DNA of 64,000 bases from an uncultured Lachnospiraceae bacterium (GCA_946549035.1 CAMNQH010000007.1:7739-71738), one strand, 5' to 3'; numbered from the stretch's first letter, positions 1,396-33,987 are shown. Translations and numbers: made by a program. Notes: generated by a model not told the origin, from the sequence alone.

Positions 1396-1420
1396 CCAAC
1401 TCCTCCTTCCTTTTCCCTTT

Positions 1421-2203: not shown

Positions 2204-2256
2204 TTCTTCTTCTCCCTTCTAATCGCCGTATCTTATGCCTTTTGAAAGCCGTCCCT

Positions 2257-2697
2257 TTAGGGAGTAGCATTGCTTATTTCATAAGTACCTGCATCGGTAC
2301 CTGACTTTTCATAAGTACATTTCTTTCCGTCCCGGGTGTAAACTACTTCGCTTATCACACCGTCGTTTCCTACGGTAACGCTAGTAATATTAGCCACCGG
2401 CACTTCCGCTAACCCAGCAATGGCTGCTAATGTCACTGTCCCAAGAGGATTTCCATCGGTAATATTAGCTCCTGTGAAGCTTCCCAAAGTCTGTTCTGCA
2501 AAATATTCATCCACCAAGGTCTGGGACGACATCACCACTTGGCGCGTCTCTGCTGTAATTTGTTTTTCCTTTGCTTTATTAATGTAGCCTGTCAAGGCCG
2601 GAATCAGCAAGGCAGCCAATATGGCCAAAATTACCAGTACAACGATTAATTCCACCAGTGTAAACCCTTTTTTTCCATTCCTTTTCCAATTTTTCAT
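2257..2697 (-). CDS. type IV pilin / pseudopilin (candidate major subunit)
   Basis: 146 aa from ATG 2697 (MKNWKRNGKKG|FTLVELIVVLVILAILAALLIPAL). Shows Gly-1, Phe+1, Glu+5 and a hydrophobic alpha1-N helix. It is the smallest pilin in the operon. Confidence 0.85.
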   Translation of the reverse strand: MKNWKRNGKKGFTLVELIVVLVILAILAALLIPALTGYINKAKEKQITAETRQVVMSSQTLVDEYFAEQTLGSFTGANITDGNPLGTVTLAAIAGLAEVPVANITSVTVGNDGVISEVVYTRDGKKCTYEKSGTDAGTYEISNATP

Positions 2698-2759
2698 CTT
2701 GTGTCTCTCCTTTTTCTTTAATTTTTTATATCTGAAGAGGTCTGTCAAAAGCCCCTCTA

Positions 2760-3503
2760 TCATTCCTTTTGGGCTGTGGGATCCGTCTTTTTTACTGCAT
2801 GATAACGCAGATCCAAGGTAACCTGATCCTTAACCCACAATTTTGTTTTTGCTTCATCCCGGTAAACCGCCACCTGGGCGTTCAAATATTCCACCTTGTC
2901 CCCAGGGGCAAGACCTGGGGGATACGAAAAGGTAATTTCCAGATAATTTCCCATATAGGCTCCCTCTGCAAACACCTTCTGCAGGGCGCGGGCCACGGCC
3001 CGGCCGTCTTTGTTCTCATAATAGTAACGTTCTCCCGTTCCCTGAGCATAATAACGAATCAGCAGCCGTCCCGGCTTTTGGTCTTCCGCTTTCATGGTGT
3101 CAATTTTCTGAGTTCCCAGATAAATATCCGTTTCAGGGCAGCCTTGCGTTGAAATTAATGTCACATATCCCTGAGTATCCAGAAACTCTAAGGCCAATCC
3201 CTCTTCCTCCCCTACTTTATCTCCCATTAAAGTATCCGGCTCACAGGTATCGTACAGCTTGACATAACCTGAGGCGTTCTCTGTAATGCCCCTTAGCTCT
3301 TGAATCACATTGTCCAAGATAACCTGAGCAAACTGCAGCCTCTGCATTCGGACAAAGAGCTTGGCTGCCGGGCTTAAAATTCCCACCACCGCCGCCATCA
3401 AAATGCTCATTAAAAACATCGACACGATAAGCTCCACCAATGTGGTGCCGGCTTTTCGTCTTTTTTTCTCCTCTTCTCTCCCCGGGCGTTCTCCTTTCCT
3501 CAA
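2760..3503 (-). CDS. prepilin-type minor pilin
   Basis: 247 aa. Long basic leader, then KAG|TTLVELIVSMFLMSILMAAVVGIL (Gly-1, Glu+5). 4-nt overlap with the upstream gene. Confidence 0.75.
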   Translation of the reverse strand: MRKGERPGREEEKKRRKAGTTLVELIVSMFLMSILMAAVVGILSPAAKLFVRMQRLQFAQVILDNVIQELRGITENASGYVKLYDTCEPDTLMGDKVGEEEGLALEFLDTQGYVTLISTQGCPETDIYLGTQKIDTMKAEDQKPGRLLIRYYAQGTGERYYYENKDGRAVARALQKVFAEGAYMGNYLEITFSYPPGLAPGDKVEYLNAQVAVYRDEAKTKLWVKDQVTLDLRYHAVKKTDPTAQKE

Positions 3504-7600: not shown

Positions 7601-10600
7601 TTTGTAATAGGCATTGCGCACATGGTCGTCAAAATTGCTGCCTTTTTGAAGAACATCCAAAAGCCTCTGATAGGAAGCGTCCGGTTCCTGGGTTTTGTCA
7701 ATAGGGAACAATATTTCTCCTATTTCATTGCCGTTTCCATAAATCCTGTCATTGACAAGGGTAAGCTGCTGTCTGGTTACGCTGCTGTCCGGGGTGATTC
7801 GCGCCACATAAGATTTTTCATCAATGTCCACCCGATAGATACAGCTTGTATCCGCTCTGGTCAGATTGTCCGGAGCTGCTTTTACCGTGTATCCGTTCTG
7901 TTCTAATATCTTAAAGCTGTCATAGCCGGAATTTCCTCCGCCGATATCACATAGGAAATAATTGTCCTTGGCGTTCAAATACGGAACGTTCCCATTGTTG
8001 GTGGTATAAGAAATAATAGGATAATTCCGGTTCTCATACGTTCCTGCCGAAATGGGGTTGACAGAATAGCAGTCTTTGATATAAGTATGTTCCGCTCCCA
8101 CCTTGGAGTATCGTTCTCCAAAAATTCCCCCTACGAACTTATTTCCTCCGCCGCCCTTTAATACTTTCGCATAGTTTCGGCACCGTTCCATACGCAAGGT
8201 AATATTTTGGGTAGCAGCTCCGATTTGAGCTTGGCTTCTGGGATTGTCACAGGACAAAAATCCTACAATACCGGAAGCCATAGATGCAGAATAAATCTCC
8301 ACCCCCGACCCGTTTACGCAGTCCAATACCTGAACGGTATAATTCTGTCCCTGGCCTTCGCCTGCCTCATAAGCCGTAATATTTCCCAAAATACCCGCAC
8401 TGTCGTTGGCGCACCCCGTATTACTTGCTCCGGTACGTCCGTAGATATTTCCATAATTTCCGCAGCTTATAATGTTATATTCGCCGCCCTCGTAGGCATG
8501 GTAGAGCTGGGCCACAATTCCTCCGGAAGCGCCTACCCATCCTGCCTCATATGTAGTCTGAAGATTCCCGAAATTGTTACATTCCTCAATGGTGCCTCCC
8601 GTCCCGGTCCATTGGCCCAAAATACCTCCGGAATAATGGGTTCTCAAGCAATAAACCGTCCCGTAATTGAAGCAGCCCTTCAGCTTCCACCCTTCTTTTG
8701 TGGTATTGTTCTGATTTCCGATAATTCCTCCGGCAAAGCGGTTGGTATCCTGAGAAGAAATCTGCCGTCCTACAAAAGCCCGGTTCAATAAAAAGGATTG
8801 ATCAGACTCCGACTCGTTCATGCCGATAATTCCCCCGGTTCCCACGCCGATAGCATCAGAACCGTTATTGAGATACCAGTTGCCTGTGGCGCAGTAATTC
8901 ACTCTCCCTTCCGGGGCGTTATAAGCTGTAATCCCGCCCAGGCTGCCGTTTACATGCATGGTTAAAATCAAGCTTTTTCCCGCTAATATTCCATCCCCAT
9001 TTTCGTAGGACAGCTGCTCTATGGATACCCCTGCCTGAGAGTTCCATCTTACATAAGAATCATCCGATGAAATCCCCAGAGCCTGGGCATTGGAAAGAAG
9101 CGTGTCTGCTCTGTCTGAGGGCTGCCCGGTAAGATTTGCCATCAGCTCTTTCGTGCTTGCGTCCCCGGATCTGGAAATGGTTCCCTTGTTATATCCCACA
9201 ACTCCTCCTGCCATTCCATTATTTATTTCCATCCGGCAATCCGAACCGGAAATCAGGCATCCTTCTATCCTTCCGGTTTCCTCATTTTTTCCAGCCACGC
9301 CGCCTATATGGGTCGCCAGTTTCTCTTTTTGAGCGGAGGTGCTGGTACTGGTTGCGGTATATACGCCTTTTATTTCCATGGTAAGATTCAAAACCTCACA
9401 GTCCGTCAGGCTTCCGTAATTATCTCCCGCAATGCCGCCGTAACAATTCCCTGCAATCCCCCTTTCTTCCATCAGGCTTCCTTCTTCTAAGCTGCATTCT
9501 GCAATCGTTCCTTCTTCCTGGTTTATTCCCGCAATTCCCCCCAAGAAGCGATAGTTGTCAAATCCTAAAAAATCCAATCCTACAGCGGAAATACGTTGTA
9601 TCTGTCCCCTGTTTTTACCTGCTGCTCCTCCCACGGTCAAGTTCCCGGCGGAAACATTAATTTTGGGCATACAGACAGCAGAAAGATTGCTTATAATTCC
9701 CAGATTCTCTCCGGTGATTCCTCCTATGGTGTCTCCGTCTCCGGATAAGACTACGTCTGTAAGGGTCCTGCTCTGTTCAATCAGGCCATGGTTGACTGCG
9801 CATATTCCGCCCAACTGTGTCTTTTTCAGACTGCGGATTTCCATGGATGCCGCGCCGCCCCCTACACTGCAGTCTTTGACTGTACCATAATTTTCTGCGG
9901 TAATTCCTCCGGCATAGCCGTTATCGCTGTTCACATTTCCCAAGCCCTGGCACTCTTCCAGCAGGATTCCCGTCTGATTTACTGCTACAATTCCTCCGGC
10001 AGGTCCCTGGTTCGCCGTCACACGGCCGCTTCGATTGATTGCCCGGCTTACCGCGCCGAAATTTTCTCCGGCAATGCCTCCGGCATACCCTTCCTTCGCC
10101 TGGATCAGAGCCGCTTTGCACACCAGATATCCCCTCTGGGCATTTAAACTTCCTTCCTGGATTCCTGCAATCCCGCCGACCTTTTCCCTGCCTGTAACGG
10201 TGACGGCTTCTCCCACTGCCACTATCTCTTTTCCTGTTGTTCCCTGGGCGGTCACAAGGATATCCCCCTGGTTTCTTCCTGCAATGCCGCCAATCCCCAT
10301 CCCATTCATTCCCTGGATGGTACGGGCCCCTGTCCCAGCGTCTTCTCCAACGACTATGGTTCCCTTATTGACTCCGGCGATTCCCCCGGCATAATCTCCT
10401 TCCGCCGTAACACTGGCTTCACTCCGGTTCTCAGAAAGGAAGCCTCCCGTCATATTGTATCCTACGATCCCTCCTACGTAACTGGATCCGGTTATGGTTC
10501 TTTGCCCCTGTGTGCTGCATTCTGCAATGGTTCCGGAATGATACACCCATTCCCGGCCGCCTTCTTTTGGCTCCCGGTACACAAGGTTTGTTCCATCTTC

Positions 10601-13600
10601 TTTCAAATTCAGTCCGGCAATCCCGCCGATATAATCCAAGGCGCCGTTTCCAAAATGATCCTCCAGTCTGCAGCCAAAAATTCCTCCGGCATTAAATCCC
10701 ACAATCCCTCCAAGACCTACAAATCCATTCATGCTCCCGGTATTTGCGCAGTGATCGATCACCTGATTTTTTAAATTTGCACTGATGACGCCTCCTGCCA
10801 TACACACATAAAGGCCCTCAAGCTCCTCCTCTTCCTCCTGCGTCAACGGAGAATTTCCCCCTCTGTCCAGATATTGCTTCAAAGACACCCCTTGGGATTC
10901 TCCCTCTTCCGAAAGCTTGGAAATATTTCCGTCGTTTCTGCAGTTTCGCAGTACCAGCCTGCTTTCTTCCTCACAATAACCTACGATGCCCCCGGTGTAA
11001 ATATGGGAACGGATGGGAATGTTGTTTCCCGCATACTGCAGCGCTTCCTCTGTATTCCTGTGATCTGTAATGGTAAGAACACAGGTATTTTGGGAGGAAA
11101 CGGCTCCTACAGGAATATTTCCTTCTCCCAATTTTGGAAGCAGAGATGTCTTCTCTGGTTCTTCCCCCTTCGCCGACGACAACAGCCGCTCCAGTAAAAC
11201 CACTTCCTGTACTTCCTGATCTTCTTGTAGCTGTTCTTTTGTAAAAGTTCTGTGATAGCCTATCAAACCTCCGGTAAAGGCTTCTCCCATAATACTGCCC
11301 AAACCATTATTTGCCCGAAGTCCTCCTATTGTCACATCGTTTTGCAAATCTACTACATTTGCCCCGATGACGCCGCCTACGCAAGAGGCGCCCCGGACAC
11401 TGGAGGGCTTAATCTCCAATTCCTTCGTCAGGATATCCTGGGAAGTATTAACGCCTATACAGCCTCCCGCTCCCATTCCGTACGCATAAATCCGGCCGCC
11501 AATCAACGTATATTCCACATCCAGGGAACCTTTTTCATCGTTAAAGCCAACGACGCCTCCTACAAAGTTTTGCCCTACCACCACAGTTGACACAGATTTT
11601 ACGGTAATGGCCTCACTTGCCTCCTGAAAGATGATTTTCCCATTGTTGTAGCCGGCCAGCCCGCCGGCGCAATCTGCCGTGGCTTTCCATTGGGATACGA
11701 TCATTTGAAAAATTATACCGCCGTAATCAGAAAGGTAACTGGCGCAATCCTGAAGTACACCTTTTTCTCCGTTATAGCCTACAATGCCTCCTACATAGCG
11801 TTCATATCCTGCCACTACGCCATTGTTAATACAGTTGGAGATGGTAATCTCATCCGCCGCGCCGTCGTTCTTTCCCAGGATGCCCCCCACATAGCTGTTG
11901 CCGATCACATAGCAGGCGTTGGTAGTCACTCCGATTCCTTCTGCTGCGGTAATGGCATGTTTCACATCGTTGGACAATCCTCCTGCAATGCCGCCCACAT
12001 AATCGGATCCCAGAATATAGCCTCCCATTTTGGTACTGCAGCCGGTAAGCTGGCTGCTGCTGCCATAGCCAATGATTCCTCCCACATACTGGCCTGTCAA
12101 AAGATGTTGATCCGCCTGGGTATAACCCGTGTTACTATAACGGCCCGGGGCGCTGATACAATCCTGAATCTGAAGGTTTTGGCCAAATCCAAGAATCCCT
12201 CCGAAGTATCTCCCCTCCAACAGGCCCTCTTCTTTTTTATGCCCTACGCTGCAGCGGATCTTCCCGTCGTTTTCACAATCCTGTATTCCCGGCTGTAAGG
12301 TATCCTCTTCCTGGCTTGCCTGGTAACCGCCCTGCATATAGCCGCCGATTCCTCCGGTAAAAAGATTGCCTTTCATATTGGCATGATTGATGCATCCTAT
12401 CACTGTGATCTCGTCTTGTACCCAGGCATATCCAAAGATTCCTCCTATGCCGTATTGATACTGCAGCGCCCGGCTTTCTGTATCCTCCGCCTGCTCCTGT
12501 TTCGGCTCTGGCAGCCTTCCGGTCACTTCCCCTTCCATGGTAAGATTTTGGATGACGGCATCGCTGCTCTCCGTCAGGGGCGTCAGCTTTCCTTCTGAAT
12601 CTTCCTCAGCCAAAATTCCTATCATTCCTCCGATGGCGGCCGGATCTTCCTCTTGTAACCCGGACGCATGATCCCTCTTTGGAAACCATACTTGAAGGGT
12701 TTTTTCTCCCTTTATCGTCACCTGTATGGAAATATCCGATAATTTCCCCTGGCTTCTGCCGCACAGGATTCCCACGCCATACAAATGGAAGAATTTTTCC
12801 GCCGCTTTGGCATTCTCCCCCTCCTCTCCCAAGGCGAGAACCGGATCCTGGAGCACCAGGTTTTGAATCTCTCCTTCCACTTCTCCAAACAGCCCCAGAT
12901 AGCGGGAATAAGGCTTATCTACGCTTTCCTGGTACATGCTGTCAATAAATGCATCCTCCGGCAGGGAACCCTCCCCCAGGCGCAAACGGCGGATCCTGGT
13001 TTTTTCTCCCTTGCCCTGGAGCACATGATTTTCAGAAAGCAAAGGTATCGTCGGAAAATGTACTGCCGGATCCTCCGTACTTTGCCAGGAAAGCGCCCGC
13101 TTCTCATGCTCTCCTTGAGACAGCGCCGCGTCATACAGTCCCGTCCCGGAAGCCATCCAGTCCAGGTTCCGGCCGTTTAAAGTAAATACGGCTTTCTTTT
13201 GCTCTTCATAACAGCGTATGTTGGAAAGATGCCGAAACCGGGTGATTTCTGCCTCAAGCGTCCCTTCCTCATCCAGACTTCCGGCCTGATACAAGGTATT
13301 CGCCTCATTGGAACGCATGGGGCTTCCAGGACGGTATTCCCGAAAATCCCCCGTGCTGTGTTCATACACCGGCTTTGTCTGGATAACTGCATAGATATCG
13401 CAAGGCAAAGATAATTGAGGAAGGAAGGCTCCCAAACGGGTAATGCTGGTGCTGTACTCTTTGGCCAGCGCTTCTCCCTGACCGGCTTGTTCTGCTGCAT
13501 AAAGCCGTTCCATCAATTCCGGGGACATCATAGCGTCTAACACCAGAGAAAATTTACCGTTCTGCCCCTCCCTGGCCTGGTAGGTCAAGGGAAAATACCA

Positions 13601-24906: not shown

Positions 24907-24999
24907 TCCCGTATCCTTTCGTTATGACAATTCCTCCAATATCAGTTTTTTCCATTCTACCCTATCAACAAAGAAATCACAACCAAAAAGACAGGCCTC

Positions 25000-26835
25000 T
25001 CACTGATACCACTTCGCCTGAGCTTCATACATTTTATAATAATGCCCCCGCCGGGCCATCAATTCCTCATGACTCCCATCTTCTACAATACGCCCCTCCC
25101 GAAACACCAGGATCCGGTCCACCAGCCCGGTAATTCCCAGCCGATGAGAAATCAAAAGGGTAGTGCGCCGCCCCGTAAGCCCGGAAAAATCCCGGTATAA
25201 TTGGGCTTCCGCCAGAGGATCCAGCGCAGCGGTGGGCTCATCCAGAATCATAATGTCCGCCCGGCTGCGGTAGGCGGCCCGCAGCAAGGCAATCTTCTGC
25301 CACTGTCCCCCGGAAAGTGTATTCCCCTTCTCGCTCAAATGTCCCAGCACCCCGGACAATCCTTGGGGCTGTTCCAAAATCACATCCTCCACATGAATTT
25401 GACGGGCCAGAGAAAGGATTTCATCATCGAAACAAGTGCGTTCCTGGTCAGATACGGTAATATTTTCCCGCAAAGGGGCCTCATAATGGGCGAAATCTTG
25501 AAATATGACGGAAATTTTTTCCCGGAGCTCATGCTTTTCCTTCTCCATGGAACGTCCGCCAATGGTAATACTGCCCTCTTTTGGGGAAAACATGCCTGTC
25601 AGCAGACTGATAAAGGTCGACTTACCGGAACCGTTATCTCCCACAATGGCTACCTTCTCCCCCGCCCGAATGGTCAAAGAAAGATCTGAAACGGCTTCTC
25701 TTAAAGCTTGGGGATAACGAAAGCTAACATGGTCAAATACAATATCTCCACTCCCTGCATCACCTCTTTTTTCCCCTTCCTCCAATTGTAATAAAGGCTT
25801 TTCTTCGTCTCTTTCCAGATCCTCCAAAGCAAAAAATTCTTTTAGATAAGACAGACAGGCAGAAAATTGCATGATTTCTGTAAAAATACTCCCAATGGCC
25901 CTCTGTAATTGTTCTGAAAGGGTATACACCAGGGTAAAGGTCCCCAATCCAAGAGCCGGATTTTGATAAATCATCCAAACTGTCACAAAAAGAAGCATCA
26001 GATAAACGCTGCTTCGTAAAAAGTCCGCCCCTATATTGGCCTTTACATGCTTTACCACCAGGTGGTTTTTCTTGTGGAGATAACTGTCTGCCACCGCCCG
26101 CCATCGCGCTTTCAAATAGTCAAAGAGCTCATAATGGCGCACTTCTTGAATTCCGTGATCTGTGGAGGTACATAAATGGTACAGATGGATTGCCATATGC
26201 CCCTCCTCCGACCATTTGGTACGTTGGCGAAACGTCTCGTCCGCCTGACGATAGGAAAGCACGGCTGCCGGAATCCCTGTGGCTATCAAAACAAGGACAA
26301 ATACAGGATGGACCGCCCAAAGGGCCAGCCCTGTTGTAGTAAAGGTGATCAACTGGTACAGGGCGTCAAACATTCCCTGTATGCCCTGGACTGCTTCCTT
26401 GCAGGCATGGGTATCTACAAAAGCGATTTTTGTAAAGAAATCATCCCTGTTTTCCAAATAGGAATAGTGAACCGTACAAATATGTTTTAAAACCGTCTCC
26501 TTCATATATCCCTGGGTGCGGTATCCATCCTGAATGCTCACAGCCCCTTCCAGAAACTGCCATATGAGCCGCAGCATAAATAACAAGCCCAGCAAAAGCA
26601 ATGCAGACAAAACCGGGGCAATCTGCCCGCCATGTCCAGGCGTCAGCAAATAAATCAAATCCGTAAGCCTTTGAAGCTGCTTCGAAAGGCACAGGGGCAA
26701 AAAGGCCATAGGCAGGCCGATGACGCCAACCGCCAGGGAAAGAGGACTTTTGACCGTGAAAAACATGCCCAAGGATTTTCGCAGAATCCAAATACCCTTC
26801 AACCTCTTTGGCGCATGGGATTGTGTCTGTTCCAT
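25000..26835 (-). CDS. ABC exporter, fused permease/ATP-binding subunit (second of pair)
   Basis: 611 aa. N-terminal six-helix transmembrane domain. Walker A GDNGSGKST, signature LSGGQWQK, Walker B ILDEP. Confidence 0.9.
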   Translation of the reverse strand: MEQTQSHAPKRLKGIWILRKSLGMFFTVKSPLSLAVGVIGLPMAFLPLCLSKQLQRLTDLIYLLTPGHGGQIAPVLSALLLLGLLFMLRLIWQFLEGAVSIQDGYRTQGYMKETVLKHICTVHYSYLENRDDFFTKIAFVDTHACKEAVQGIQGMFDALYQLITFTTTGLALWAVHPVFVLVLIATGIPAAVLSYRQADETFRQRTKWSEEGHMAIHLYHLCTSTDHGIQEVRHYELFDYLKARWRAVADSYLHKKNHLVVKHVKANIGADFLRSSVYLMLLFVTVWMIYQNPALGLGTFTLVYTLSEQLQRAIGSIFTEIMQFSACLSYLKEFFALEDLERDEEKPLLQLEEGEKRGDAGSGDIVFDHVSFRYPQALREAVSDLSLTIRAGEKVAIVGDNGSGKSTFISLLTGMFSPKEGSITIGGRSMEKEKHELREKISVIFQDFAHYEAPLRENITVSDQERTCFDDEILSLARQIHVEDVILEQPQGLSGVLGHLSEKGNTLSGGQWQKIALLRAAYRSRADIMILDEPTAALDPLAEAQLYRDFSGLTGRRTTLLISHRLGITGLVDRILVFREGRIVEDGSHEELMARRGHYYKMYEAQAKWYQ

Positions 26836-28662
26836 TTAACATTCCTCCTGATACCATTGGGCCTGCTGACGGAAAAAATCGGCGTAAATACCGTCTTTTT
26901 TTAACAATTCCTCATGAGTGCCCACTTCCTTTAACATTCCTTGGTCCAACAAAAATATCCGATCCGCCATCCGGGCAAACCCAATCCGATGGCTGATCAA
27001 AATAGAGGTGCGTCCTCTTATTTTTTTTCGAATATTTTCAAACTGCTCCAATTCGGCGATTGGGTCTAAGGCCGCCGCCGGTTCGTCAAATATCAAAATC
27101 TCCTTCTCGCTCATATGGGTACGAGAAACTGCAATTTTCTGCTGCTCGCCTCCGGATACATTAAGCCCCGTTTTTTTCACATCTTTTTTCAAGAGCTGCT
27201 CCAAACCATCCGGACATTTTTTCAGAAGAGAACTGCCGCCTCCCAGCTCCAGAGCCTTTTCAATCCGGGCGTCGTCCTTTAAATATTTTAAATTTCCAAA
27301 CCCTACATTTTCCCGTAAAGAAAGATGAAACAAATAAAAATTCTGAAAAAACATGCCGATTTGGTGATTGATACTTCCCTGGGGATACTCAGAGTAGGGC
27401 TTCCCGTAAAGCAGCAATTCTCCCCCATCCGGCCGGTAAAGGTCGATCAAAAGCTTCACCAGGGTGGATTTCCCGCTGCCATTTGCGCCTACTAAGGCAA
27501 TGGTTTCTCCTTTTTTTATTACAAAATTCAATCCATGCAAAACTTCCCTTTTGCCATCGTAAGAAAAATGAAGATCCCTTGCTTCAAATACATTCTCCGC
27601 CTCCTCCCGCCGGCTGGAAACCGTCTCTAAAATAGCTCTGTGGTCCAGCATCCTCTCATCTCCCAGGGGCACATTTGTCAAAAAACGGTGCTGAAGCTTT
27701 AAGGCGTCTAAGCCCCGGAGAGTTTCAAACAAAGCGGCGGAAAAGGTTTTATTCACATCAGAGAGACTTTCTCCCAATAAATAAAGCATCAAAAATACAT
27801 CCGCCTGGAGCTTTCCTGCCGCCACCTGCCAAACTGCAAACACAGACATTCCCAGTATAGCCAGATAAATGCAGGCGGCTACGAACACGGATAAGCGATG
27901 ACGGCCCATATCAAAATCCGTGTGAAACTGAAGTACTTCTCCATAAGCCTCCTTCCATTTTTGCAGCAGCTTGCTCTGGGTATGATAGATACGCATCTCC
28001 TTGGCAGCCCCGGGATTTTTCGCCTCCATGGTGTAATATTCCGATTTCGAACTCAGCTTAGAGCATTTCAATGTGTCCAGTACAAAATGGGAAGAAAGCC
28101 TGCAATTTAATATGACGGCCAATAGAAAGCATACGCCCGCCGTGATTCCCACAGGGAGGGACACAGAAAAAGCGACCCCTATCAGGGAAACGGCCGTAAC
28201 GCTTTTCATCACCGTAATACAGCCATGGCTCATTAAATCCGTCAACCCCCCGGTGCGGTAAAGGCAATAACGGTAATCCTCATAAAACTGTTGATCCATC
28301 AATGTTTTTACGTCTACTTTCTGAATGCAGTCCGCCAAATATTCCTGCATGCCAAAATAGTAGTTATCATACATTTGCACATAGAGAAACTGTCCGTTGA
28401 TTCGTCGGGACAGTCCGGTGAGAATCAGAAAAAATCCCAACGCCAATAATGGAATCACCACATCCCCAAAGCTTCCCTGTCCGGTGGAAAGAAAGTCTGA
28501 CAGCACTGCTACCGTCCGGCGGTTGCAGGCCAAGGAAGCGGATGGAAGGAACGCCAAAAGAGATCCAAACAAAATCCAAAACCAAAACACCTTCGGGCTG
28601 ATACGATAGGCAAGCCGGACAGACCAAAGCAGTACCACAAGATTCTCTTTTAATTTTTTCAT
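26836..28662 (-). CDS. ABC exporter, fused permease/ATP-binding subunit (first of pair)
   Basis: 608 aa. Walker A GANGSGKST, signature VSGGEQQK, Walker B IFDEP. Abuts the next gene with no gap. ATGA overlap with the LytTR gene. Confidence 0.9.
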   Translation of the reverse strand: MKKLKENLVVLLWSVRLAYRISPKVFWFWILFGSLLAFLPSASLACNRRTVAVLSDFLSTGQGSFGDVVIPLLALGFFLILTGLSRRINGQFLYVQMYDNYYFGMQEYLADCIQKVDVKTLMDQQFYEDYRYCLYRTGGLTDLMSHGCITVMKSVTAVSLIGVAFSVSLPVGITAGVCFLLAVILNCRLSSHFVLDTLKCSKLSSKSEYYTMEAKNPGAAKEMRIYHTQSKLLQKWKEAYGEVLQFHTDFDMGRHRLSVFVAACIYLAILGMSVFAVWQVAAGKLQADVFLMLYLLGESLSDVNKTFSAALFETLRGLDALKLQHRFLTNVPLGDERMLDHRAILETVSSRREEAENVFEARDLHFSYDGKREVLHGLNFVIKKGETIALVGANGSGKSTLVKLLIDLYRPDGGELLLYGKPYSEYPQGSINHQIGMFFQNFYLFHLSLRENVGFGNLKYLKDDARIEKALELGGGSSLLKKCPDGLEQLLKKDVKKTGLNVSGGEQQKIAVSRTHMSEKEILIFDEPAAALDPIAELEQFENIRKKIRGRTSILISHRIGFARMADRIFLLDQGMLKEVGTHEELLKKDGIYADFFRQQAQWYQEEC

Positions 28663-29396
28663 TCTGCATCATCCTCCTTCCCCTTTTGGTGAAACGTAAA
28701 CCCATAACGGCGAATCTGTTCCACTACATATGCCCGCCTTCCCCGGCTCACGGGGATCTGCGCACCGTTGGTAAGAGTCAATATTGCTCCCTCCAGCTTT
28801 TGAAAATAGCGCAGATTCACAAGATAAGCCGCATGGCAGCGCACTAGAGAGGTGCCTGCAAAAAGAGCTTCATGCTGCTTCATCTGCCGATAGCTTACAA
28901 TATCCTCCTGCCCCGTATGTATCAACGTGTGTTTCTTCTCTGTCTCAATATAGAGAATCTGGCGCAGGTAAATTTTATAAATGCCGCTTTTGTTTTCCTC
29001 CAAAATGCAGAGGGCTTCTGCATGGTCTTTTTCCTCCAAGGCTCTTGTCAGCTCCCTGCAGAATTTCGCGTAGCTTAAGGGTTTCAGCAAATAATTGTCC
29101 ACCCCCGCCTCATAGGCTTCCAGCACATAAGACAAAACCGTGGTTAAAAAGACAATCCGCACCCGCAGATCCTGCTGCCGGATGCGCTCCGCAATGGCAA
29201 GGCCATTCATTTTTCGGAAAGGAATTTCCAAAAATACAAGATCCAAATCCAGCATATAATTTTTCAATAGCTTTTCTCCGCTGCTGTAGCTTAGAAGCTG
29301 TAAATGAGTTCCGGTTTCCCGGCAATACCGTTCTGCAAATCCGGTTAAGAGGCTTCGTACAGACGTCTCCGAGTCACAGATACCGATTACTAGCAT
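28659..29396 (-). CDS. LytTR-family response regulator
   Basis: 245 aa from ATG 29396 (MLVIGICDSE...). Receiver domain (LDLVFLEIPFRKMNG) plus a C-terminal LytTR DNA-binding domain (ILYIETEKKHTLIHT...RCHAAYLVNL). No kinase gene adjacent. Confidence 0.85.
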   Translation of the reverse strand: MLVIGICDSETSVRSLLTGFAERYCRETGTHLQLLSYSSGEKLLKNYMLDLDLVFLEIPFRKMNGLAIAERIRQQDLRVRIVFLTTVLSYVLEAYEAGVDNYLLKPLSYAKFCRELTRALEEKDHAEALCILEENKSGIYKIYLRQILYIETEKKHTLIHTGQEDIVSYRQMKQHEALFAGTSLVRCHAAYLVNLRYFQKLEGAILTLTNGAQIPVSRGRRAYVVEQIRRYGFTFHQKGKEDDAE

Positions 29397-29679
29397 GGGA
29401 GGAGGCTCCTTTCTCACAATTTTAACGGTAAATATCTTAGGGCGTTGGATACGGACAGCCCCAAATGGTCTGCACATGGAAATCACGGGCAGCCTTGTTG
29501 TGGTACAAGTATACGAAAAATGGGTAGGGATGTAAAGATTGTGGGAATAGTTGGACGTTTCCAGAGGATAATCTGAAATGCTGGTCTATCTTATAAACTG
29601 GCATAAAATGGATAATTCCCATTTTTAATATTAAAAAAGTGATAAAATGGATAAAAATTGTTTAAATCTTCTTTATAAG

Positions 29680-29688
29680 TGGTATAAT
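29680..29688 (+). promoter_or_regulatory. extended -10 (TGGTATAAT) for the two-gene AT-rich island
   Basis: TGgTATAAT lies 27 nt upstream of ATG 29715. Preceded by two copies of ATAAAATGGATAA (29603-29615 and 29642-29654). Confidence 0.4.
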
Positions 29689-29714
29689 AGATAAAAATGA
29701 GAAAGGAGCCCATA

Positions 29715-30911
29715 ATGAAAAAATTAAAAGCAGAGGATGTTTTCAGACCGGGAGCATTTCCAGAATATACCTATATCTCACGCAAATCTGCCGTTTCAGA
29801 TCTGCCCTATGAATTTCGTTTGATGCAGGCTATTAAGGTTTCTGGCTTTTTGACTTCCTTAGTAGGACCCTCGAAAATGGGAAAAACCATTTTATGCGAA
29901 AAAGTAATCGGTTTTGAACATATTGTGGAAGTTTCAGGCGCAGACTTTGACGACGAAACAGATTTCTGGAAAGTCGTCGCTGCAAAAGCCGGTTTGGCTT
30001 ATGAGGGACAATTTTCTTCTGAAAAAACAATTGCTGAAACCAGTGATAAATATTCTAAAAAAGAAACCTATTCTTTAACAAAGGATAAAATTATTACGTT
30101 TTATAAAAATGAAAATTTAGTCCTGGTGATAGACGACTTTCATTATGCACCTGAAAAAAAGCGTATGCAAATCGCACAGCAATTAAAAGACGCAATTCGC
30201 AGAGGTTTTAAAGCAATTGTGATTTCCCTCCCTCACAGAGCAGATGAAGCAATTCGCCGAAATGCTGATCTTTCAGGACGTTTAAGCATGATCAACATGG
30301 ATGCCTGGGAAGTAAATGATTTATCGCAAATTGCAAAAATAGGTTTTGAGAAACTTGGTATCAACATTGAAAATCACGTAGCGGAACAAATCGCAATAGA
30401 AAGTTTATCTTCCCCCCAATTAATGCAATACATTTGTTTAAATATTTGCACGATCCTGGAAATGTCTGGAAAAAATGACAAATGCGTAAAACAAGAGATT
30501 TTAAAGACAGCATATCACTATACAACTGCGAACTTTGAATACGGTGATGTGGTATCTCTTATGAAAAAAGGTCCAAACATGAGAGGGAAAAGCAGAAATC
30601 ATTTTCCCGTGGAAGATGGAACGGAATGTGATATCTATGAATTAATTGTAAAGTCTATTGCAGAAAATCCGCCGATCATGAAATTGAAATTTGAGGATGT
30701 GAAAGAGCGTATTTATCACTTAATCGCAGACGACTACAAAAAACCAACTCCTCAAGCCATCAAAGAAAGTTTAACTAAATTACAGGAATTGCTGGATGGC
30801 CGAGAAGACATATTTAAAGTTCTTGACTGGAAAGATGGGGTGTTATATATTTTAGATCCTTTGTTTTTATTTTATTTACGGTGGGGAGGAGAAAGCAGAA
30901 AAGATGTTTGA
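29715..30911 (+). CDS. P-loop NTPase, AAA/ORC-Cdc6-like architecture (island gene A)
   Basis: 398 aa from ATG 29715 (AAAGGAG ribosome-binding site 7 nt upstream). Walker A LVGPSKMGKTIL and Walker B LVLVIDDFHY. An alpha-helical and probable winged-helix C-terminal half. AT-rich codon usage. Confidence 0.75.
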   Translation: MKKLKAEDVFRPGAFPEYTYISRKSAVSDLPYEFRLMQAIKVSGFLTSLVGPSKMGKTILCEKVIGFEHIVEVSGADFDDETDFWKVVAAKAGLAYEGQFSSEKTIAETSDKYSKKETYSLTKDKIITFYKNENLVLVIDDFHYAPEKKRMQIAQQLKDAIRRGFKAIVISLPHRADEAIRRNADLSGRLSMINMDAWEVNDLSQIAKIGFEKLGINIENHVAEQIAIESLSSPQLMQYICLNICTILEMSGKNDKCVKQEILKTAYHYTTANFEYGDVVSLMKKGPNMRGKSRNHFPVEDGTECDIYELIVKSIAENPPIMKLKFEDVKERIYHLIADDYKKPTPQAIKESLTKLQELLDGREDIFKVLDWKDGVLYILDPLFLFYLRWGGESRKDV

Positions 30912-31635
30912 TGATACCACTTGTTTACAAGAAGCTATAAAAAAACTGGAACAGGCACAGGACAGTTACTCATTTCAAACGGCAGTAAATGTATTAGAGA
31001 ATCATATGAAAGAAATAGGGTTAGATTCACTCTACCTCATCGGTTTAAAGCAAAGAGCATATTATTTTCAAAACGACTATTCTGACAAAGATACAAAATC
31101 AAAAATGATGGAAGCCAAAATGCGTGTAATGCAATATATAAATGAGATGATAAATACAGACAGAAGTGAGAACCTGCTGCCAAATATATTGGAAAATTTT
31201 TATCTATTTCTGGAAAACCTGATTGAGAGAATCCCACATAAGCGCGGCGGCATTCAACCCAAGCAACTAGAAGGATTAAAAGTAAAAAACGAATATGATG
31301 TCCAGCATTTATTATATGCATTCCTAAAGCCCCTCTATCCTATGGCACGTACAGAAGTAAGTGAAGACACCGGGTATGGCACGGTCAGGGCAGACATTTT
31401 ATTGGATTTGGAACACACAATTGAAGTAAAATGTACAAGAAAAGGAATGTCATTAAAAAAACTAATAGAAGAAATTGAAGCAGATATGATTCACTATGAT
31501 GCAAAAAATATTTATTTTTTTATTTATGATAAAGAAAAAATCATTGAAAATCCCGCTATTTTTAAGAAAACCTATGAGAACAAAATAGCAGAAAAACAAA
31601 TACATATAATCCTCCATCAGCCTAAGCTATTATAA
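30904..31635 (+). CDS. PD-(D/E)xK nuclease-like protein (island gene B)
   Basis: 243 aa. The ATG overlaps gene A's stop (ATGTTTGA, 8 nt). The C-terminal half reads helix(NEYDVQHLLYAFL)-strand-RADILLD-HTIEVKC-helix-IYFFIYD. This fits the alpha-beta-beta-beta-alpha-beta restriction-endonuclease core with D...ExK. Confidence 0.6.
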   Translation: MFDDTTCLQEAIKKLEQAQDSYSFQTAVNVLENHMKEIGLDSLYLIGLKQRAYYFQNDYSDKDTKSKMMEAKMRVMQYINEMINTDRSENLLPNILENFYLFLENLIERIPHKRGGIQPKQLEGLKVKNEYDVQHLLYAFLKPLYPMARTEVSEDTGYGTVRADILLDLEHTIEVKCTRKGMSLKKLIEEIEADMIHYDAKNIYFFIYDKEKIIENPAIFKKTYENKIAEKQIHIILHQPKLL

Positions 31636-31645
31636 AAACCCCTTT

Positions 31646-32422
31646 TCACCTCTTCTCCAAGTCCTCCGGCATCGCCTCCTTACTGCGATTATAATACTGC
31701 ATGGGACTAAGCCCCGTATTCTTTTTAAACAATCGGGAGAAATAATACGGATCCTCAAATCCGCAGCTTCTGGCAATCTCCTCCACCGTCATAATCGCCT
31801 TATTTTGGAGAAGCTGCTGCTTGGCCAGTTGGATTTTCAATTTATTATAATACTGCAAAGGAGAACAGCCGCATTGCTCTTTAAACAATTTACGGAAATG
31901 ATTGGGGGAATAAGAGGTCCCCTCTATTAATTCTGCCAAATTAAAATGAAGATCGCCCACATGAGCAGCCATCACATTCTGGACATATAAAACCTCTTTA
32001 TTTTTGCCTATATCATCCTTCCAATGACACAGAAGATTCTGCATTGCATCTAAAATAGAGCGCAAAAAACGCTCCCCGTAAGTATCCGTCGCAGGATTCA
32101 TGGGATATTCAAAGGCCAGCTTAAATAATAGATAAAAAGACTGGCGCTCATCATCCTGAAAGACTAAAACATTCTCATTCTGAGAATCAAAACAAAAATC
32201 CCCCACCAGAACGCTTCCATCTACAAACCCCTCTTCTGATTTTTTGCTGTGAACACTGCCGGGACGGATGCAAAAAATCGTCCCTGGACAAAATTCATAC
32301 TCCCGGCCGTCTACAACGGCGGTTCCTCTTCCTTCTATGTTCAGCAGCACCTCCCAAAAATCATGGCGGTGGGGAGGATATTCATAAAACCGCTTATTTT
32401 GGCTCATCACAAAAAAATTCAT
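31646..32422 (-). CDS. AraC-family transcriptional regulator (cupin + HTH)
   Basis: 258 aa. N-terminal cupin-like domain (HRHDFWEVLLNIEGRG). C-terminal double HTH (SPNHFRKLFKEQCGCSPLQYYNKLK...IARSCGFEDPYYFSRLFKKNTGLSPMQY). Confidence 0.9.
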   Translation of the reverse strand: MNFFVMSQNKRFYEYPPHRHDFWEVLLNIEGRGTAVVDGREYEFCPGTIFCIRPGSVHSKKSEEGFVDGSVLVGDFCFDSQNENVLVFQDDERQSFYLLFKLAFEYPMNPATDTYGERFLRSILDAMQNLLCHWKDDIGKNKEVLYVQNVMAAHVGDLHFNLAELIEGTSYSPNHFRKLFKEQCGCSPLQYYNKLKIQLAKQQLLQNKAIMTVEEIARSCGFEDPYYFSRLFKKNTGLSPMQYYNRSKEAMPEDLEKR

Positions 32423-32591
32423 GTCCTGCTCCTATCTATCCTATGTTCTGTTCCCTACCGGATTCATATGCCCTCTCTGAAATTATATCCGGAAATCGTA
32501 ATTTTGTCCATCTTTCTCTTTGTTTCCTGCATGGATTTTCCCCTGACGCTCCCTTATAATAATCTTATCATATCACACGGGAGGTAAGAAT

Positions 32592-33500
32592 ATGGACACC
32601 AAATTAGGACATCCCAGAAGAGGCATTTGCTTATACAGCTATCACAATCTTTTGGGAAAATCAATGACGCTGGAAGATGCTTTTCTGGAAATGTATGACA
32701 CCGGGGCTTCATGCTTCGAATTTCTCACAAGCTACATCCCCAATTACCCCAATCCCACGCCGGAGTGGATTGACAAATACTGGAGACTTTGCGACAAATA
32801 TAAGCTGCAGCCCTCCGAGCTGGGCCATTGGGCGGAAAACCATCTTCATAGAGGCCCGGGCATGACAGACGACGACGTAGTAGAGGAATTGAAGCAGGAT
32901 TTCCGCCTGGCAAACCTCTTAGGCTTTAAGGCCCTCCGCACCAAAATCACTTGCACCAACGTCCTCTGCGATCCGGAGCCCGGCTGGCAGAGCTATATCG
33001 AAAAAGCCCTTCCCTACGCTGAGAAATATGACGTCCGTATGCAGAACGAGGTGCATCTTCCCACGACGCTTCACACCCCGCATATCAAGGATGAATATCT
33101 TGATTTCATCCATCGCACTAAGACAGAGCATTTTGGTTTCAATATTGACTTCGGTACATTCCAATACAGGGCTGCAAAGGGAATGGAAGACATGCCTATG
33201 TGCCATTTCGAGGACATTACCAAGCCGGAAGAAATTGTGGATTTCCTTCCCTACAGCTACGCATGTCACGCCAAATTCACCTATGTCAATGAAAATTTCG
33301 TAGAGGAAACAATCCCCTATCCTGAAGTCATCAAGCTGATGATTGACAATGGCTGGAGCGGAGACTTGCTTTCGGAATATGAAGGAGCCATCCGTTTCTT
33401 CGCAGAAGAAGGCCCCGCACAATTCGGACAGGCGATGGTTGAGATTCCGGAACAAGTACGCCGCCATCAAATCATGCTTCGCAACATATTAGGATACTAA
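32592..33500 (+). CDS. xylose-isomerase-like TIM-barrel protein (sugar phosphate isomerase/epimerase superfamily); candidate C-glycoside deglycosidase alpha-like subunit
   Basis: 302 aa with a GGGAGG ribosome-binding site. The general pattern of the AP-endonuclease-2/xylose-isomerase-like barrel is present (FEFL..., LGFKALRTKI, EVHLPT, FGFNIDFGT). Specific function is inferred from the partner gene. Confidence 0.6.
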   Translation: MDTKLGHPRRGICLYSYHNLLGKSMTLEDAFLEMYDTGASCFEFLTSYIPNYPNPTPEWIDKYWRLCDKYKLQPSELGHWAENHLHRGPGMTDDDVVEELKQDFRLANLLGFKALRTKITCTNVLCDPEPGWQSYIEKALPYAEKYDVRMQNEVHLPTTLHTPHIKDEYLDFIHRTKTEHFGFNIDFGTFQYRAAKGMEDMPMCHFEDITKPEEIVDFLPYSYACHAKFTYVNENFVEETIPYPEVIKLMIDNGWSGDLLSEYEGAIRFFAEEGPAQFGQAMVEIPEQVRRHQIMLRNILGY

Positions 33501-33515
33501 AAGGAGGGTATGACA

Positions 33516-33953
33516 ATGGTAGAATTTCAGACAATTCAACAGCGGGGGTTTCATAACACCTATGATGAAAACGGAGAAATCGACGGATTTGAATTCCGTT
33601 TTGTTCCCAAATATTACAAAGGATATTGGTTTACCCAATGCCGTTTCGGAAATGTAACCGTTGACGGCGAAGTTTTTGACCGGGACAGCCTCATTTTTGA
33701 ATATGATGGGATCGAATACACCAGAGAAGAAATGTTTGACCTGAATAAATACTGGCAGTTCCGGGAACCCCTGATCTACAAAATAAAAAAGAAGGGCGGC
33801 CTTTCCATCGGTTATCACGACGTAAGTCTGCAGTTTGGCTGGGTATTGAATTACAACGGCTCCTTAGAAGCCGAACCGGACGGAAGCGGCCTGGGAAATA
33901 TGGCCCATATGTTTGGTGTGGATCATCAAAGGAAGATGCTGCTTTGCAGATAA
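33516..33953 (+). CDS. small beta-rich protein resembling DUF6379 / C-glycoside deglycosidase beta subunit
   Basis: 145 aa from ATG 33516 (AAGGAGGG 7 nt upstream; the track's ATG 33510 is too close to the ribosome-binding site). GFEFRFVPKYYKGYWFTQCRFGNVTVDGEVF...IEYTREEM resembles what I recall of the beta subunits that pair with TIM-barrel alpha subunits. Confidence 0.5.
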   Translation: MVEFQTIQQRGFHNTYDENGEIDGFEFRFVPKYYKGYWFTQCRFGNVTVDGEVFDRDSLIFEYDGIEYTREEMFDLNKYWQFREPLIYKIKKKGGLSIGYHDVSLQFGWVLNYNGSLEAEPDGSGLGNMAHMFGVDHQRKMLLCR

Positions 33954-33956
33954 AAA

Positions 33957-33987
33957 AAGAATCCGGCTCTGCCGGATTCTTCGTTTT
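33957..33987 (+). terminator. rho-independent terminator
   Basis: AAGAATCCGGC-tct-GCCGGATTCTT followed by CGTTTT. Sits between convergent genes. Confidence 0.75.

Follow-up and report, generated by a model that had tools for sequence, protein, structure and literature searches.

Structure and boundaries of the inserted cassette

The window analysed here, a stretch of 64,000 nt from an uncultured Lachnospiraceae bacterium, carries an inserted cassette of 2064 bp (nt 29574–31637) that contains two genes, termed A and B below, and no others. It lies between a LytTR gene and an AraC gene, and the neighbouring genes of the window further comprise MatE, two ABC transporters, AP_endonuc_2 and sugar ABC transport genes. 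The cassette has a G+C content of 34.3%, compared with 46.7% for the remaining window; this is the lowest value of any 2-kb stretch in the 64 kb, about 3.9 SD under the average of all segments of 2064 bp. An AT-rich segment between LytTR and AraC had been proposed in the original prediction, and the contrast estimated there by hand count (about 39% vs 49% G+C) is close to the measured values of 38.2% for the first 110 nt of gene A and 49.0% for the first 100 nt of the LytTR gene.

The limits of the cassette were set by aligning the window to an empty site (locus L155), which was reached through a LytTR homologue 99% identical to that of the window; an exact look-up of the AraC protein for the same purpose returned cassette-bearing contigs only. 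The presence/absence comparison suggested earlier thus yielded a near-identical strain without the cassette. In blastn, L155 matches nt 24987–29573 at 98.4% identity and nt 31638–33959 at 96.1%, the sequence between them being unmatched, and where the window has its 2064 bp there are just 24 bp, GGTATAACGCCCCCATACCATCAG. While the predicted island itself is upheld, its span of nt 29490–31645 has to be corrected to the limits given by the empty site. The mapped junctions show neither a target-site duplication nor terminal (inverted) repeats, and within about 10 kb of the cassette there is no integrase, transposase, methyltransferase or phage gene, as had been claimed. Since an empty site exists between flanks of 96–98% identity, and the G+C content is 34% as against 47%, the cassette is a horizontally acquired, strain-variable and compositionally deviant two-gene unit.

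A sigma-70-type promoter with an extended -10 element (TTTAAA, 16-nt spacer, TGgTATAAT; nt 29661–29688, plus strand) is predicted upstream of gene A. It matches the consensus at 10 of 12 positions, is the top-scoring site in the region and the sole one with an upstream TG, and according to the alignment with L155 it sits within the inserted DNA, so that the promoter attributed to the cassette was correctly recognised. Gene A (nt 29715–30911, plus strand) encodes 398 aa, or 404 aa if read from the first ATG at nt 29697. The shorter form is favoured because a ribosome-binding site, AAGGAG (nt 29703–29708, plus strand), can be read in the sequence 6 nt upstream of M7, that is, of the ATG at nt 29715; the homologues of A are 393–401 aa long, and their alignment begins at the 398-aa start. 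The start of gene B and the stop of gene A overlap by the predicted 8 nt, ATGTTTGA (nt 30904–30911, plus strand), and a GGAGG site lies ahead of the B start within the 3' end of A (nt 30885–30889). The identical overlap of -8 is found at other loci (L002–L004, L014, L017, L021, L028 and L033–L045), and overlapping or near-abutting A and B genes are the rule across contexts. From this layout, joint transcription of genes A and B from the promoter of the cassette and coupled translation are predicted; the two genes are also strictly inherited together.

Gene A encodes an Orc1/Cdc6-like ATPase

The product of gene A is an AAA+ ATPase in which a core (approximately residues 30–200), a lid (204–285) and a winged helix (295–390) can be delimited. 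The Walker A motif GPSKMGKT occupies residues 51–58 (nt 29865–29888, plus strand) and the Walker B motif LVLVIDDFHY, of the DD type, residues 135–144 (nt 30117–30146, plus strand), both being the motifs originally reported. In an alignment of 61 family members (26–57% identity), G51, K54, G56 and K57 of Walker A are invariant, and D140, D141, F142, H143 and Y144 of Walker B are at least 90% conserved overall and invariant in close homologues; the two motifs are conserved throughout the family of 1425 clusters (50% identity).

Sequence searches place the protein at some distance from known families. Pfam returned weak matches to AAA_22, TniB and NB-ARC, comparison of the A profile with VchTnsC was likewise weak (E 0.04–0.13), and searches of PDB by single sequence and by profile gave nothing but P-loop noise. 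Structural comparison with Foldseek, using a model of low confidence (pLDDT 65, with TM-scores of about 0.23), gave Cdc6 as the best match (1fnn; E 1.1e-7, 430 aligned columns), along with human ORC1 and Orc1/Cdc6-DNA (2qby), followed by RFC and RuvB; against BFVD it gave generic clamp-loader matches only. The P-loop ATPase with a winged-helix-like half that had been described is therefore recovered as an AAA+ protein with a winged helix. Walker A and B, a helical lid, a C-terminal winged helix and the closest structural neighbours in this low-confidence model all point the same way, and gene A is assigned, on the modelled structure, to the Orc1/Cdc6 clade of AAA+ ATPases, with a predicted intact ATP site and a C-terminal winged helix. 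Assignment to the STAND NTPases (NB-ARC/NACHT/AAA_16) was rejected, the scores for NB-ARC (17.2 bits, cut-off 23.5) and AAA_16 (13.6, cut-off 32.6) both being too low; the protein, at 398 aa, ends after the winged helix and has no repeat sensor or effector domain.

Gene A is related to PDC-S59, an unvalidated single-gene phage defence candidate of PADLOC (E 4.1e-21, 73.5 bits, aligned over residues 132–396 only), for which a literature search found no publication. The proteins are similar in size (~400–430 aa) and share the motifs VFTPxxxPxxTYVxR, GPSKSGKT, IDDFHY, SVPHR...GR, GSPQLMQ and DPYFLFYLRW. Ten distant representatives of the A family all match the PDC-S59 profile at 71–118 bits, the full-length matches scoring 97–118 bits. 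These profile and motif similarities point to gene A as a distant member of the PDC-S59 superfamily. PDC-S59 is, however, catalogued alone, whereas the clade of gene A has an obligatory REase partner.

Gene B encodes a helical + REase nuclease

Gene B (nt 30904–31635, plus strand) encodes a two-domain protein of 243 aa. Its C-terminal domain (residues 91–238; nt 31174–31617, plus strand, Pfam envelope) belongs to the PD-(D/E)xK family REase_DpnII-MboI (PF18742; E 9.6e-34, 116.5 bits, cut-off 27), covers positions 2–148 of the 150 in the model, and is present in all 120 of the B homologues listed. The protein also matches the PADLOC profile Aga_Helical-REase (E 5e-16). In the AlphaFold model (pLDDT 82.7) the domain shows an alpha-beta-beta-beta-alpha-beta core, consisting of a helix (130–141), three strands (149–153, 162–166 and 171–177), a second helix (184–197) and a further strand (202–208). 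The putative catalytic residues, E130 (nt 31291–31293), D164 (nt 31393–31395), E174 (nt 31423–31425) and K176 (nt 31429–31431), all on the plus strand, are invariant in 44 homologues. A Foldseek search of PDB with the whole B model gave weak REase-fold matches only, none at E <= 1e-3. The motifs first pointed out in this protein (NEYDVQ, RADILLD and IEVKC) are all present, and the restriction-endonuclease fold with D...ExK suspected from them agrees with the Pfam match, the modelled core and the invariant residues. Gene B is thus predicted to encode a nuclease of the PD-(D/E)xK type in which the active site is intact and its residues are invariant.

The N-terminal domain (residues 1–112; nt 30904–31239, plus strand) is modelled as five helices (8–17, 21–37, 42–52, 61–85 and 88–108), and no homologue of it was detected outside its own family. 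It evolves rapidly: its dN is 0.43–0.55, compared with 0.09–0.16 for A (about fourfold), and an HMM of the domain misses or barely matches the partners of A homologues that are still 41–57% identical. Estimates of omega for the domain are 0.15–0.32, and no value above 1 was found, dS being saturated for most pairs. With omega below 1 there is no sign of positive selection, and the rapid change in this domain may be due to a relaxation of constraint and not to an arms race.

By homology, the closest solved relative of B is EcbAgaN (PDB 23wq), an Argonaute-associated abortive-infection DNase that acts as effector nuclease in BPAN, a long-B pAgo system (PMC13535254, PMC10620215). The N-terminal domain of AgaN both auto-inhibits the nuclease and attaches to the sensor; the enzyme, a non-specific DNase, becomes active on oligomerisation and defends by abortive infection, and its C-terminal nuclease domain is toxic by itself (PMC13535254). 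Both proteins consist of a non-catalytic N-terminal domain followed by a C-terminal PD-(D/E)xK domain, and a profile match to 23wq (E 6.3e-7) shows homology between the two nuclease domains. Residues D164, E174, V175 and K176 of B align with D298, E309, V310 and K311 of EcbAgaN, among which D298, E309 and K311 are catalytic (PMC13535254), and the RxD and IEVK segments of B align with the D-EVK motif described for AgaN in the same study. The similarity is confined to the nuclease half, as the alignments with Aga_Helical-REase and the PDB entry cover only residues 89–240 of B (profile positions 216–364); the N-terminal domain has 112 aa in B versus about 220 aa in AgaN, with no detectable homology between the two. 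The partner also differs, being an AAA+ ATPase for B and an Argonaute for AgaN, and there is no pAgo gene at the cassette or in any of the roughly 25 contexts described below.

Distribution, genomic context and decay

Intact A-B pairs are present in gut Lachnospiraceae, Blautia, Anaerostipes and Eubacterium, where they occupy approximately 25 chromosomal contexts unrelated to one another. Every A homologue of at least 41% identity with room downstream has an adjacent B-type REase gene, and in each of three diverse B homologues that were checked gene A lies immediately upstream. The relatives of A examined at 37% identity or less stand alone, and most of the A family, which comprises 1425 clusters at 50% identity, is without a nuclease partner. 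Constant co-occurrence of the two genes, which had been proposed as a check, is therefore true of the closer relatives and not of the distant ones. Clustering of the neighbours of stand-alone relatives (95 loci) showed no conserved partner; the only recurrent neighbours were structural genes of P2-like phages, and some of the distant relatives are extra cargo genes of P2-like prophages.

A defence-island setting had also been expected, and did not materialise. Across contexts the neighbours of the cassette are mostly housekeeping genes, and a known defence gene lies within 6 kb in about 3 of 25, which is not clearly above background. These neighbours are a Dazbog system, a Type IIG R-M system and a PDC-S01. 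The Dazbog system (L160) is complete and directly abuts the cassette; an extra 393-aa gene at this locus, considered as a possible second A paralogue, is DzbA of Dazbog.

Gene B has been inactivated independently at least nine times with A left intact. One species alone accounts for four of these lesions, namely a nonsense mutation, two deletions (of 1 bp and 13 bp) and an insertion of 13 bp, and further losses of B were seen at L013, L015, L017, L022 and L032. Phase variation by a repeat tract was rejected as an explanation: the four lesions of the one species, located at nt 185–285 of the gene, differ from each other and the 13-bp indels are of unrelated sequence, so there is no slippage tract. 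Effector swapping was similarly rejected for L013, L015 and L017, where only the N-terminal domain of B is matched, since these are truncations or an internal deletion of B. The recurrent loss suggests that the nuclease is costly, or toxic to its own host. Persistence of A after the loss of B would be unexpected if A were merely a sensor for B, and as most of the A family lacks a nuclease partner, A may be able to act without an effector.

Relationship to known conflict systems

Pairings of an Orc/Cdc6-type ATPase with an REase are a recognised theme in comparative genomics (PMC10853773), and conflict ATPases of this clade include BrxC/PglY, SspC, RdrA of RADAR, the CR-effector NTPase-REase fusions and HerA-coupled Orc/Cdc6-REase systems (PMC10853773, PMC9994260). 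Gene A resembles them in its Orc/Cdc6-type AAA+ core and C-terminal winged helix, and RdrA in particular in its DD-type Walker B, while the A-B pair, like these systems, links such an ATPase to a nuclease of the restriction fold in mobile neighbourhoods (PMC10853773). None of the PADLOC models for these systems matches A, however, and the cassette differs in having no HerA/FtsK, inactive REase insert, methyltransferase, deaminase or KAP partner. Its ATPase and REase are, moreover, separate polypeptides, unlike the NTPase-REase fusions.

The nuclease-domain family PF18742 is common to B and the Type II enzymes DpnII and MboI. Unlike these, B has an extra helical N-terminal domain and an obligatory ATPase partner, and there is no cognate methyltransferase in the cassette or among its neighbours; a literature search on DpnII-MboI returned nothing relevant. 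Avoidance of GATC, looked for as a sign of DpnII-like specificity, is not marked in the window (190 observed, 239 expected) or in the insert (6 vs 6.3).

The original prediction put the pair forward as a candidate undescribed system, neither protein showing the signature motifs of the named ones. In the PADLOC profile search this proved correct for named, validated systems. 'Undescribed' is nevertheless too strong, because A is homologous to PDC-S59, B falls within PF18742 and is related to AgaN, and the Orc/Cdc6-REase theme is already known (PMC10853773). The cassette is plausibly an anti-phage pair, representing a new two-gene combination of already catalogued families.

Proposed function and alternatives

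The reading preferred here, to which we give roughly even chances, is that of a conflict module of two genes, spread by horizontal transfer and probably directed against phages, in which A would serve as ATP-dependent sensor or scaffold and activate B as a non-specific DNase. A trigger such as foreign DNA, a replication intermediate or a phage protein would cause A, acting as sensor, switch or scaffold, to bind ATP and oligomerise, possibly on DNA through its winged helix. The oligomer would then engage B through the variable helical N-terminal domain, which by analogy with AgaN would otherwise keep the nuclease domain auto-inhibited. Clustered nuclease domains would cleave DNA indiscriminately, and the destruction of phage DNA, host DNA or both would abort the infection. 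An EAD-like adaptor domain common to A and B was considered and rejected (hhalign probability 0.5%).

A selfish toxin-antitoxin or addiction module, with B as a toxic DNase, A as its ATP-dependent neutraliser, loss of the cassette killing the cell and defence being secondary, seems an unlikely alternative, yet much of the layout fits it. Type II toxin-antitoxin operons typically have the neutraliser gene first and the toxin gene second, overlapping, which is the order and overlap of A and B, and the unit is compact, with two genes, its own promoter, no mobility genes and a scattered distribution among housekeeping genes. Gene B, the putative toxin, is repeatedly lost while A survives, and the nuclease domain of AgaN is toxic alone (PMC13535254). 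On the other side, a 398-aa AAA+ protein with a conserved ATP site is far bigger and more elaborate than the usual antitoxin, and most of its family has no toxin partner. The N-terminal domain of B could itself be the auto-inhibitor, as in AgaN, in which case no antitoxin would be needed, and the role of a toxin-antitoxin module can in any case coexist with abortive-infection defence. Less probable still is restriction of the McrBC kind (Type IV or NTP-dependent), whereby A would bind DNA, perhaps modified, via its winged helix and hydrolyse NTP for assembly or translocation, and B would act like McrC, cutting foreign DNA without killing the cell. The resemblance lies in the logic and order of the genes, an AAA+ NTPase gene coupled to a following gene for a PD-(D/E)xK nuclease with a non-catalytic N-terminal domain, as in mcrB-mcrC, and in the lack of a methyltransferase in the cassette; Orc/Cdc6-clade ATPases such as SspC are also predicted to encircle or scan DNA in restriction-type systems (PMC10853773). 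The similarity of the B model to McrC (6ut6_G) is weak and not significant (Foldseek E 0.17), however, and the significant homologue of B is AgaN, a non-specific abortive-infection DNase. Gene A belongs to another AAA+ clade, in the structural neighbourhood of Orc1/Cdc6, RFC and RuvB, matches none of the McrB or AAA_5 models of Pfam and PADLOC, carries no McrB signature, and has no separate domain for reading DNA or modified bases. The recurrent loss of B, moreover, suggests a self-toxicity not ordinarily expected of a modification-dependent enzyme when the DNA of its host is unmodified.

Tn7-like modules that combine TnsC/TniB with TnsA are recognised by transposon ends, a target duplication of 5 bp and the presence of a DDE transposase. 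That the cassette derives from a Tn7/Mu-like element, as a remnant or an accessory module, with A as a TniB/TnsC-like target-selection ATPase and B as a TnsA-like endonuclease, is very improbable, as neither a DDE transposase (TnsB/TniA) nor TniQ is present in it or within 10 kb, there are no terminal inverted repeats or target-site duplication, the insert replaces 24 bp, and A and B alone recur in some 25 contexts. What speaks for such an origin is the mobility of the cassette, the inclusion of transposon ATPases in the Orc/Cdc6 clade (PMC10853773), the weak profile matches of A to VchTnsC, and the match to Pfam TniB (E 1.8e-4), which at 21.4 bits falls below the cut-off of 22.4.

The preferred reading of A as sensor or scaffold and B as effector can be extended, tentatively and with rather low expectation, to the family as a whole. 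Its members could be a new class of minimal Orc/Cdc6-like immune sensors whose assembly takes place on invading DNA or on intermediates of replication; those of the present gut-Firmicute clade would activate an AgaN-type nuclease by scaffolded oligomerisation, reaching the effector mechanism of AgaN independently of Argonaute. The stand-alone members in prophages would then defend in another, effector-less way, for example by blocking phage replication origins.

Should the defence function proposed here be correct, the immune repertoire of human-gut Lachnospiraceae, so far poorly charted, would be enlarged by a self-contained cassette of about 2 kb, and the PDC-S59 family, a large set of orphan ATPases, would gain a function. 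The AgaN-type 'helical + REase' effector would then appear as a module that can be plugged into either Argonaute or Orc/Cdc6-like ATPase sensors. Ready-made controls are available in nature, where strains exist that carry the cassette, the empty site or a knocked-out B, and the frequent loss of B may provide a measure of the fitness cost of a suicide nuclease in gut populations.

Insertion site and base composition

The cassette carrying A (398-aa ATPase) and B (243-aa nuclease) between the host LytTR and AraC genes is an insertion whose boundaries could be placed with base precision. Searching for homologues of the neighbouring LytTR regulator led to a contig (L155) that encodes a 99% identical LytTR protein and in which the AraC and LytTR genes adjoin directly. 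By blastn, this empty site matches window nt 24987–29573 at 98.4% and nt 31638–33959 at 96.1%, but lacks the 2064 bp between them (nt 29574–31637) and has 24 unrelated bases instead. The insert is the lowest-GC 2-kb stretch of the 64 kb (34.3% G+C vs 46.7% for the remaining window, about 3.9 SD under the mean). In a profile of the region, G+C is 0.34–0.38 over nt 29250–31999 and 0.44–0.50 on both flanks. The hand counts of 39% and 49% G+C in the original prediction became 38.2% and 49.0% when recomputed. Target-site duplications and terminal repeats were looked for at the junctions and neither was found, nor is there an integrase or transposase gene within about 10 kb of the cassette.

The LytTR ORF (nt 28659–29486, minus strand) has 275 aa when counted from a GTG; gene callers, like all homologues, begin at an internal ATG (245 aa, nt 28659–29396), which leaves about 177 bp rather than 87 bp of host intergenic sequence to the left of the insert.

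Organisation of the cassette

The sequence features listed in the original prediction, which proposed a candidate ATPase-nuclease defence pair at nt 29490–31645, were all present on re-examination. Both ORFs are on the plus strand, A at nt 29697 or 29715 to 30911 and B at nt 30904–31635, with the stop of A overlapping the start of B (ATGTTTGA); together they form a coupled operon. The 398-aa form of A is favoured by an AAGGAG site 6 nt 5' of the ATG at nt 29715 and by the length of all homologues (393–401 aa). The best promoter-like site of the region, TTTAAA-16-TGgTATAAT (nt 29661–29688), alone among the candidates in having an extended -10, lies inside the insert, so that the signals for expression arrive with the cassette itself. 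Only 10 bp (nt 31636–31645) separate the B stop from the convergent AraC stop on the minus strand, and no terminator was found in this gap. Transcription from the cassette promoter would run antisense into the AraC gene, and the insertion may therefore perturb the host regulator.

At the locus matching window nt 30891–30911, three near-identical cassettes (L001, nt 7302–7304; L005; L006) have a nonsense codon that trims the last 7 residues of A, giving 391 aa and a 13-nt gap in place of the 8-nt overlap. Translational coupling is thus not universal even among near-identical cassettes.

Pairing and genomic context

Word-sharing homologues numbered 1504 for A and 463 for B, the close ones belonging to gut Lachnospiraceae, Eubacterium, Blautia and Anaerostipes; the exact A and B proteins are unnamed in every source consulted. 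B lies 3' of A in 9/9 species-representative genomes recovered, and at a quite different locus (L007–L012) B again follows A. Among 126 further loci fetched with the family profile, every A homologue of at least 41% identity is immediately followed by a B-type REase gene (REase-domain HMM scores 1e-35 to 1e-54), while relatives of 37% identity or less (95 loci) have no B-like gene and no other conserved neighbour. Conversely, A is directly upstream in 3/3 diverse B homologues tested. The pair was found in about 25 unrelated contexts. The two-gene cassette forms a clade of its own in an ATPase family whose other members stand alone; it moves as a unit and is both mobile and strain-variable.

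A defence-island context had been expected, and was observed occasionally rather than generally. Pfam searches with 110 dereplicated large neighbour proteins returned mostly ABC transporters, AraC regulators, chemoreceptors, MFS transporters and peptidases, and PADLOC returned one Type IIG R-M enzyme, one PDC-S01 and generic helicase/ABC matches. In L160 and L161 the cassette is directly 3' of a full Dazbog gene set (DzbA 3e-135, DzbB 6.5e-58). There (L160, nt 538–2833), Dazbog, a YgjP-like gene and an HTH_3/Peptidase_M78 gene directly precede A and B, which makes this single context a small defence cluster. In L007–L012 a PF09820 'AAA-ATPase_like'/PDDEXK_9 gene (nt 7943–9487) lies two genes before the cassette and encodes another, uncharacterised ATPase-nuclease protein.

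Genes for a tape-measure-like protein (phrog_13137, 945 bits), an HNH endonuclease and a repressor-like protein are found within about 4 kb of the pair in L103 (nt 8001–9982; IMGVR_UViG_2541047295_000015; A 55% identical to that of the window), indicating that the cassette can ride on a prophage-like element. Several stand-alone A relatives occur in P2-like prophages, between baseplate V/W/J and tail-completion genes. In L110 (nt 1119–3077), L126, L128 and L132 (IMG/VR), A-family (PDC-S59-like) genes stand alone on the opposite strand as extra cargo, with the baseplate V/W/J genes to one side and tail-completion/terminator genes to the other; the nuclease partner is absent from these four loci.

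Gene A

P-loop matches of A in Pfam (AAA_22, TniB, NB-ARC, AAA) were all sub-threshold, and NCBIfam gave nothing useful. A matches PADLOC PDC-S59 (E 4.1e-21), an unvalidated single-gene 'phage defence candidate' on which a literature search found no publications. When 1.84 billion representative proteins were searched exhaustively, 1425 clusters were recovered (E <= 1e-3), nearly all of 370–450 aa; as 10/10 distant representatives match PDC-S59 (71–118 bits, many full length), A is a diverged member of this superfamily. An alignment of 61 sequences (26–57% identity) shows conserved Walker A GPSK(S/M)GKT and DD-type Walker B (V/L)IDDFHY motifs, an SVPHR...R.N.DL.GR block, GSPQLMQ, and a C-terminal DPYFLFYLRW.

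Searching the PDB by sequence alone gave no useful information. Although the AlphaFold model is of mediocre quality (pLDDT 65), its Foldseek neighbours agree with one another: Cdc6 from Pyrobaculum (1fnn, E 1.1e-7, whole-length alignment) is followed by human ORC1, archaeal Orc1/Cdc6 on DNA, RFC and RuvB. We conclude that A is an AAA+ ATPase of the Orc1/Cdc6 clade in which the ATP site is conserved, and that it consists of a core, lid and winged helix and has no further sensor or effector domain. One distant relative (P0380, 630 aa) is extended at its N-terminus by about 248 aa, in which there is a weak match to nucleotide cyclases (Guanylate_cyc, E 0.0015); this extension may be a fused signalling/effector domain.

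Gene B and its decay

B is a nuclease of the AgaN type, in which the active site is conserved and the N-domain is a separate unit. Residues 91–238 match PF18742 (REase_DpnII-MboI; 116.5 bits, cut-off 27), and Argonaute-associated 'Helical-REase' models of PADLOC also match (E 5e-16). The sole solved relative is EcbAgaN (23wq; E 4e-4 by single sequence, 6.3e-7 by profile), nuclease of the long-B Argonaute system BPAN, in an alignment spanning NEY..., RxD and IEVK. Its catalytic D-EVK motif (D298, E309, V310, K311; PMC13535254) aligns with D164, E174, V175 and K176 of B, and 44 homologues show no variation at E130, D164, E174 and K176. In the model (pLDDT 82.7), five helices make up the N-domain, and the core after it has the canonical alpha-beta-beta-beta-alpha-beta order; a whole-model Foldseek search returned restriction-fold matches, all weak.

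The N-domain is fast-evolving. For the same genome pairs, dN is 0.09–0.16 in A, 0.16–0.24 in the REase domain and 0.43–0.55 in the N-domain; omega, taken only where dS is unsaturated, is 0.03–0.05, 0.07–0.14 and 0.15–0.32, the last of which does not show positive selection.

In natural populations B has been inactivated by at least 9 independent lesions, with A full-length. These include truncations (L015, nt 11184–11420; L017, nt 11178–11531), split genes (L022, L032), and a nonsense codon, 1-bp deletion, 13-bp insertion and 13-bp deletion at nt 185–285 of the B gene (L033, L036, L037, L049). The last four, all different, occur among 14 contigs of a single species. In a sister species that has the cassette at exactly this locus, the REase core is lost through an internal deletion (L013, nt 7445–7881). 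Repeated loss of B beside an intact A is as expected for a costly, potentially self-toxic nuclease.

Possible function

A mechanism can be proposed from work on EcBPAN, in which the AgaN N-domain keeps the nuclease auto-inhibited and docks on the sensor once this is activated. The C-domains then oligomerise into a non-specific DNase, by which the genome is degraded and infection aborted; on its own, the C-domain is toxic (PMC13535254). By analogy, A would take the place of Argonaute and assemble in a trigger- and ATP-dependent manner; this assembly would gather B into clusters by way of the B N-domain, and DNA degradation would be switched on. Pairing of Orc/Cdc6-clade ATPases with restriction-fold nucleases is a recognised theme in conflict systems (PMC10853773), and RADAR RdrA shares a Cdc6-like core and DD-type Walker B with A (PMC10853773, PMC9994260). 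The weak points of this reading are that A persists without B, that most of the A family has no effector, and that the neighbourhood is mostly housekeeping.

An addiction or toxin-antitoxin module would account for the order of the genes, for their scatter over housekeeping contexts and for B being the gene that is preferentially lost, but is unlikely given the size of A and the existence of a stand-alone A family. It is still more doubtful that the pair is a McrBC-like restriction system, since the AAA+ clade of A and the nearest relative of B do not fit, although the operon logic does. A Tn7-like relic, for which transposase, transposon ends and target duplication are all missing, is highly improbable.

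The locus is not a BPAN system, since it has no Argonaute and the N-domain of B differs, in spite of the homology of B to AgaN; nor does A, unlike PDC-S59, stand alone in the cassette. No named or validated system with this type of pairing was found. We rate it as a known kind, a putative NTPase sensor with a nuclease effector (Orc/Cdc6 + REase), of which this two-gene form is new. Its logic would not surprise a specialist. It is a clean, compact and abundant gut-bacterial candidate that comes with natural knock-out and empty-site controls.
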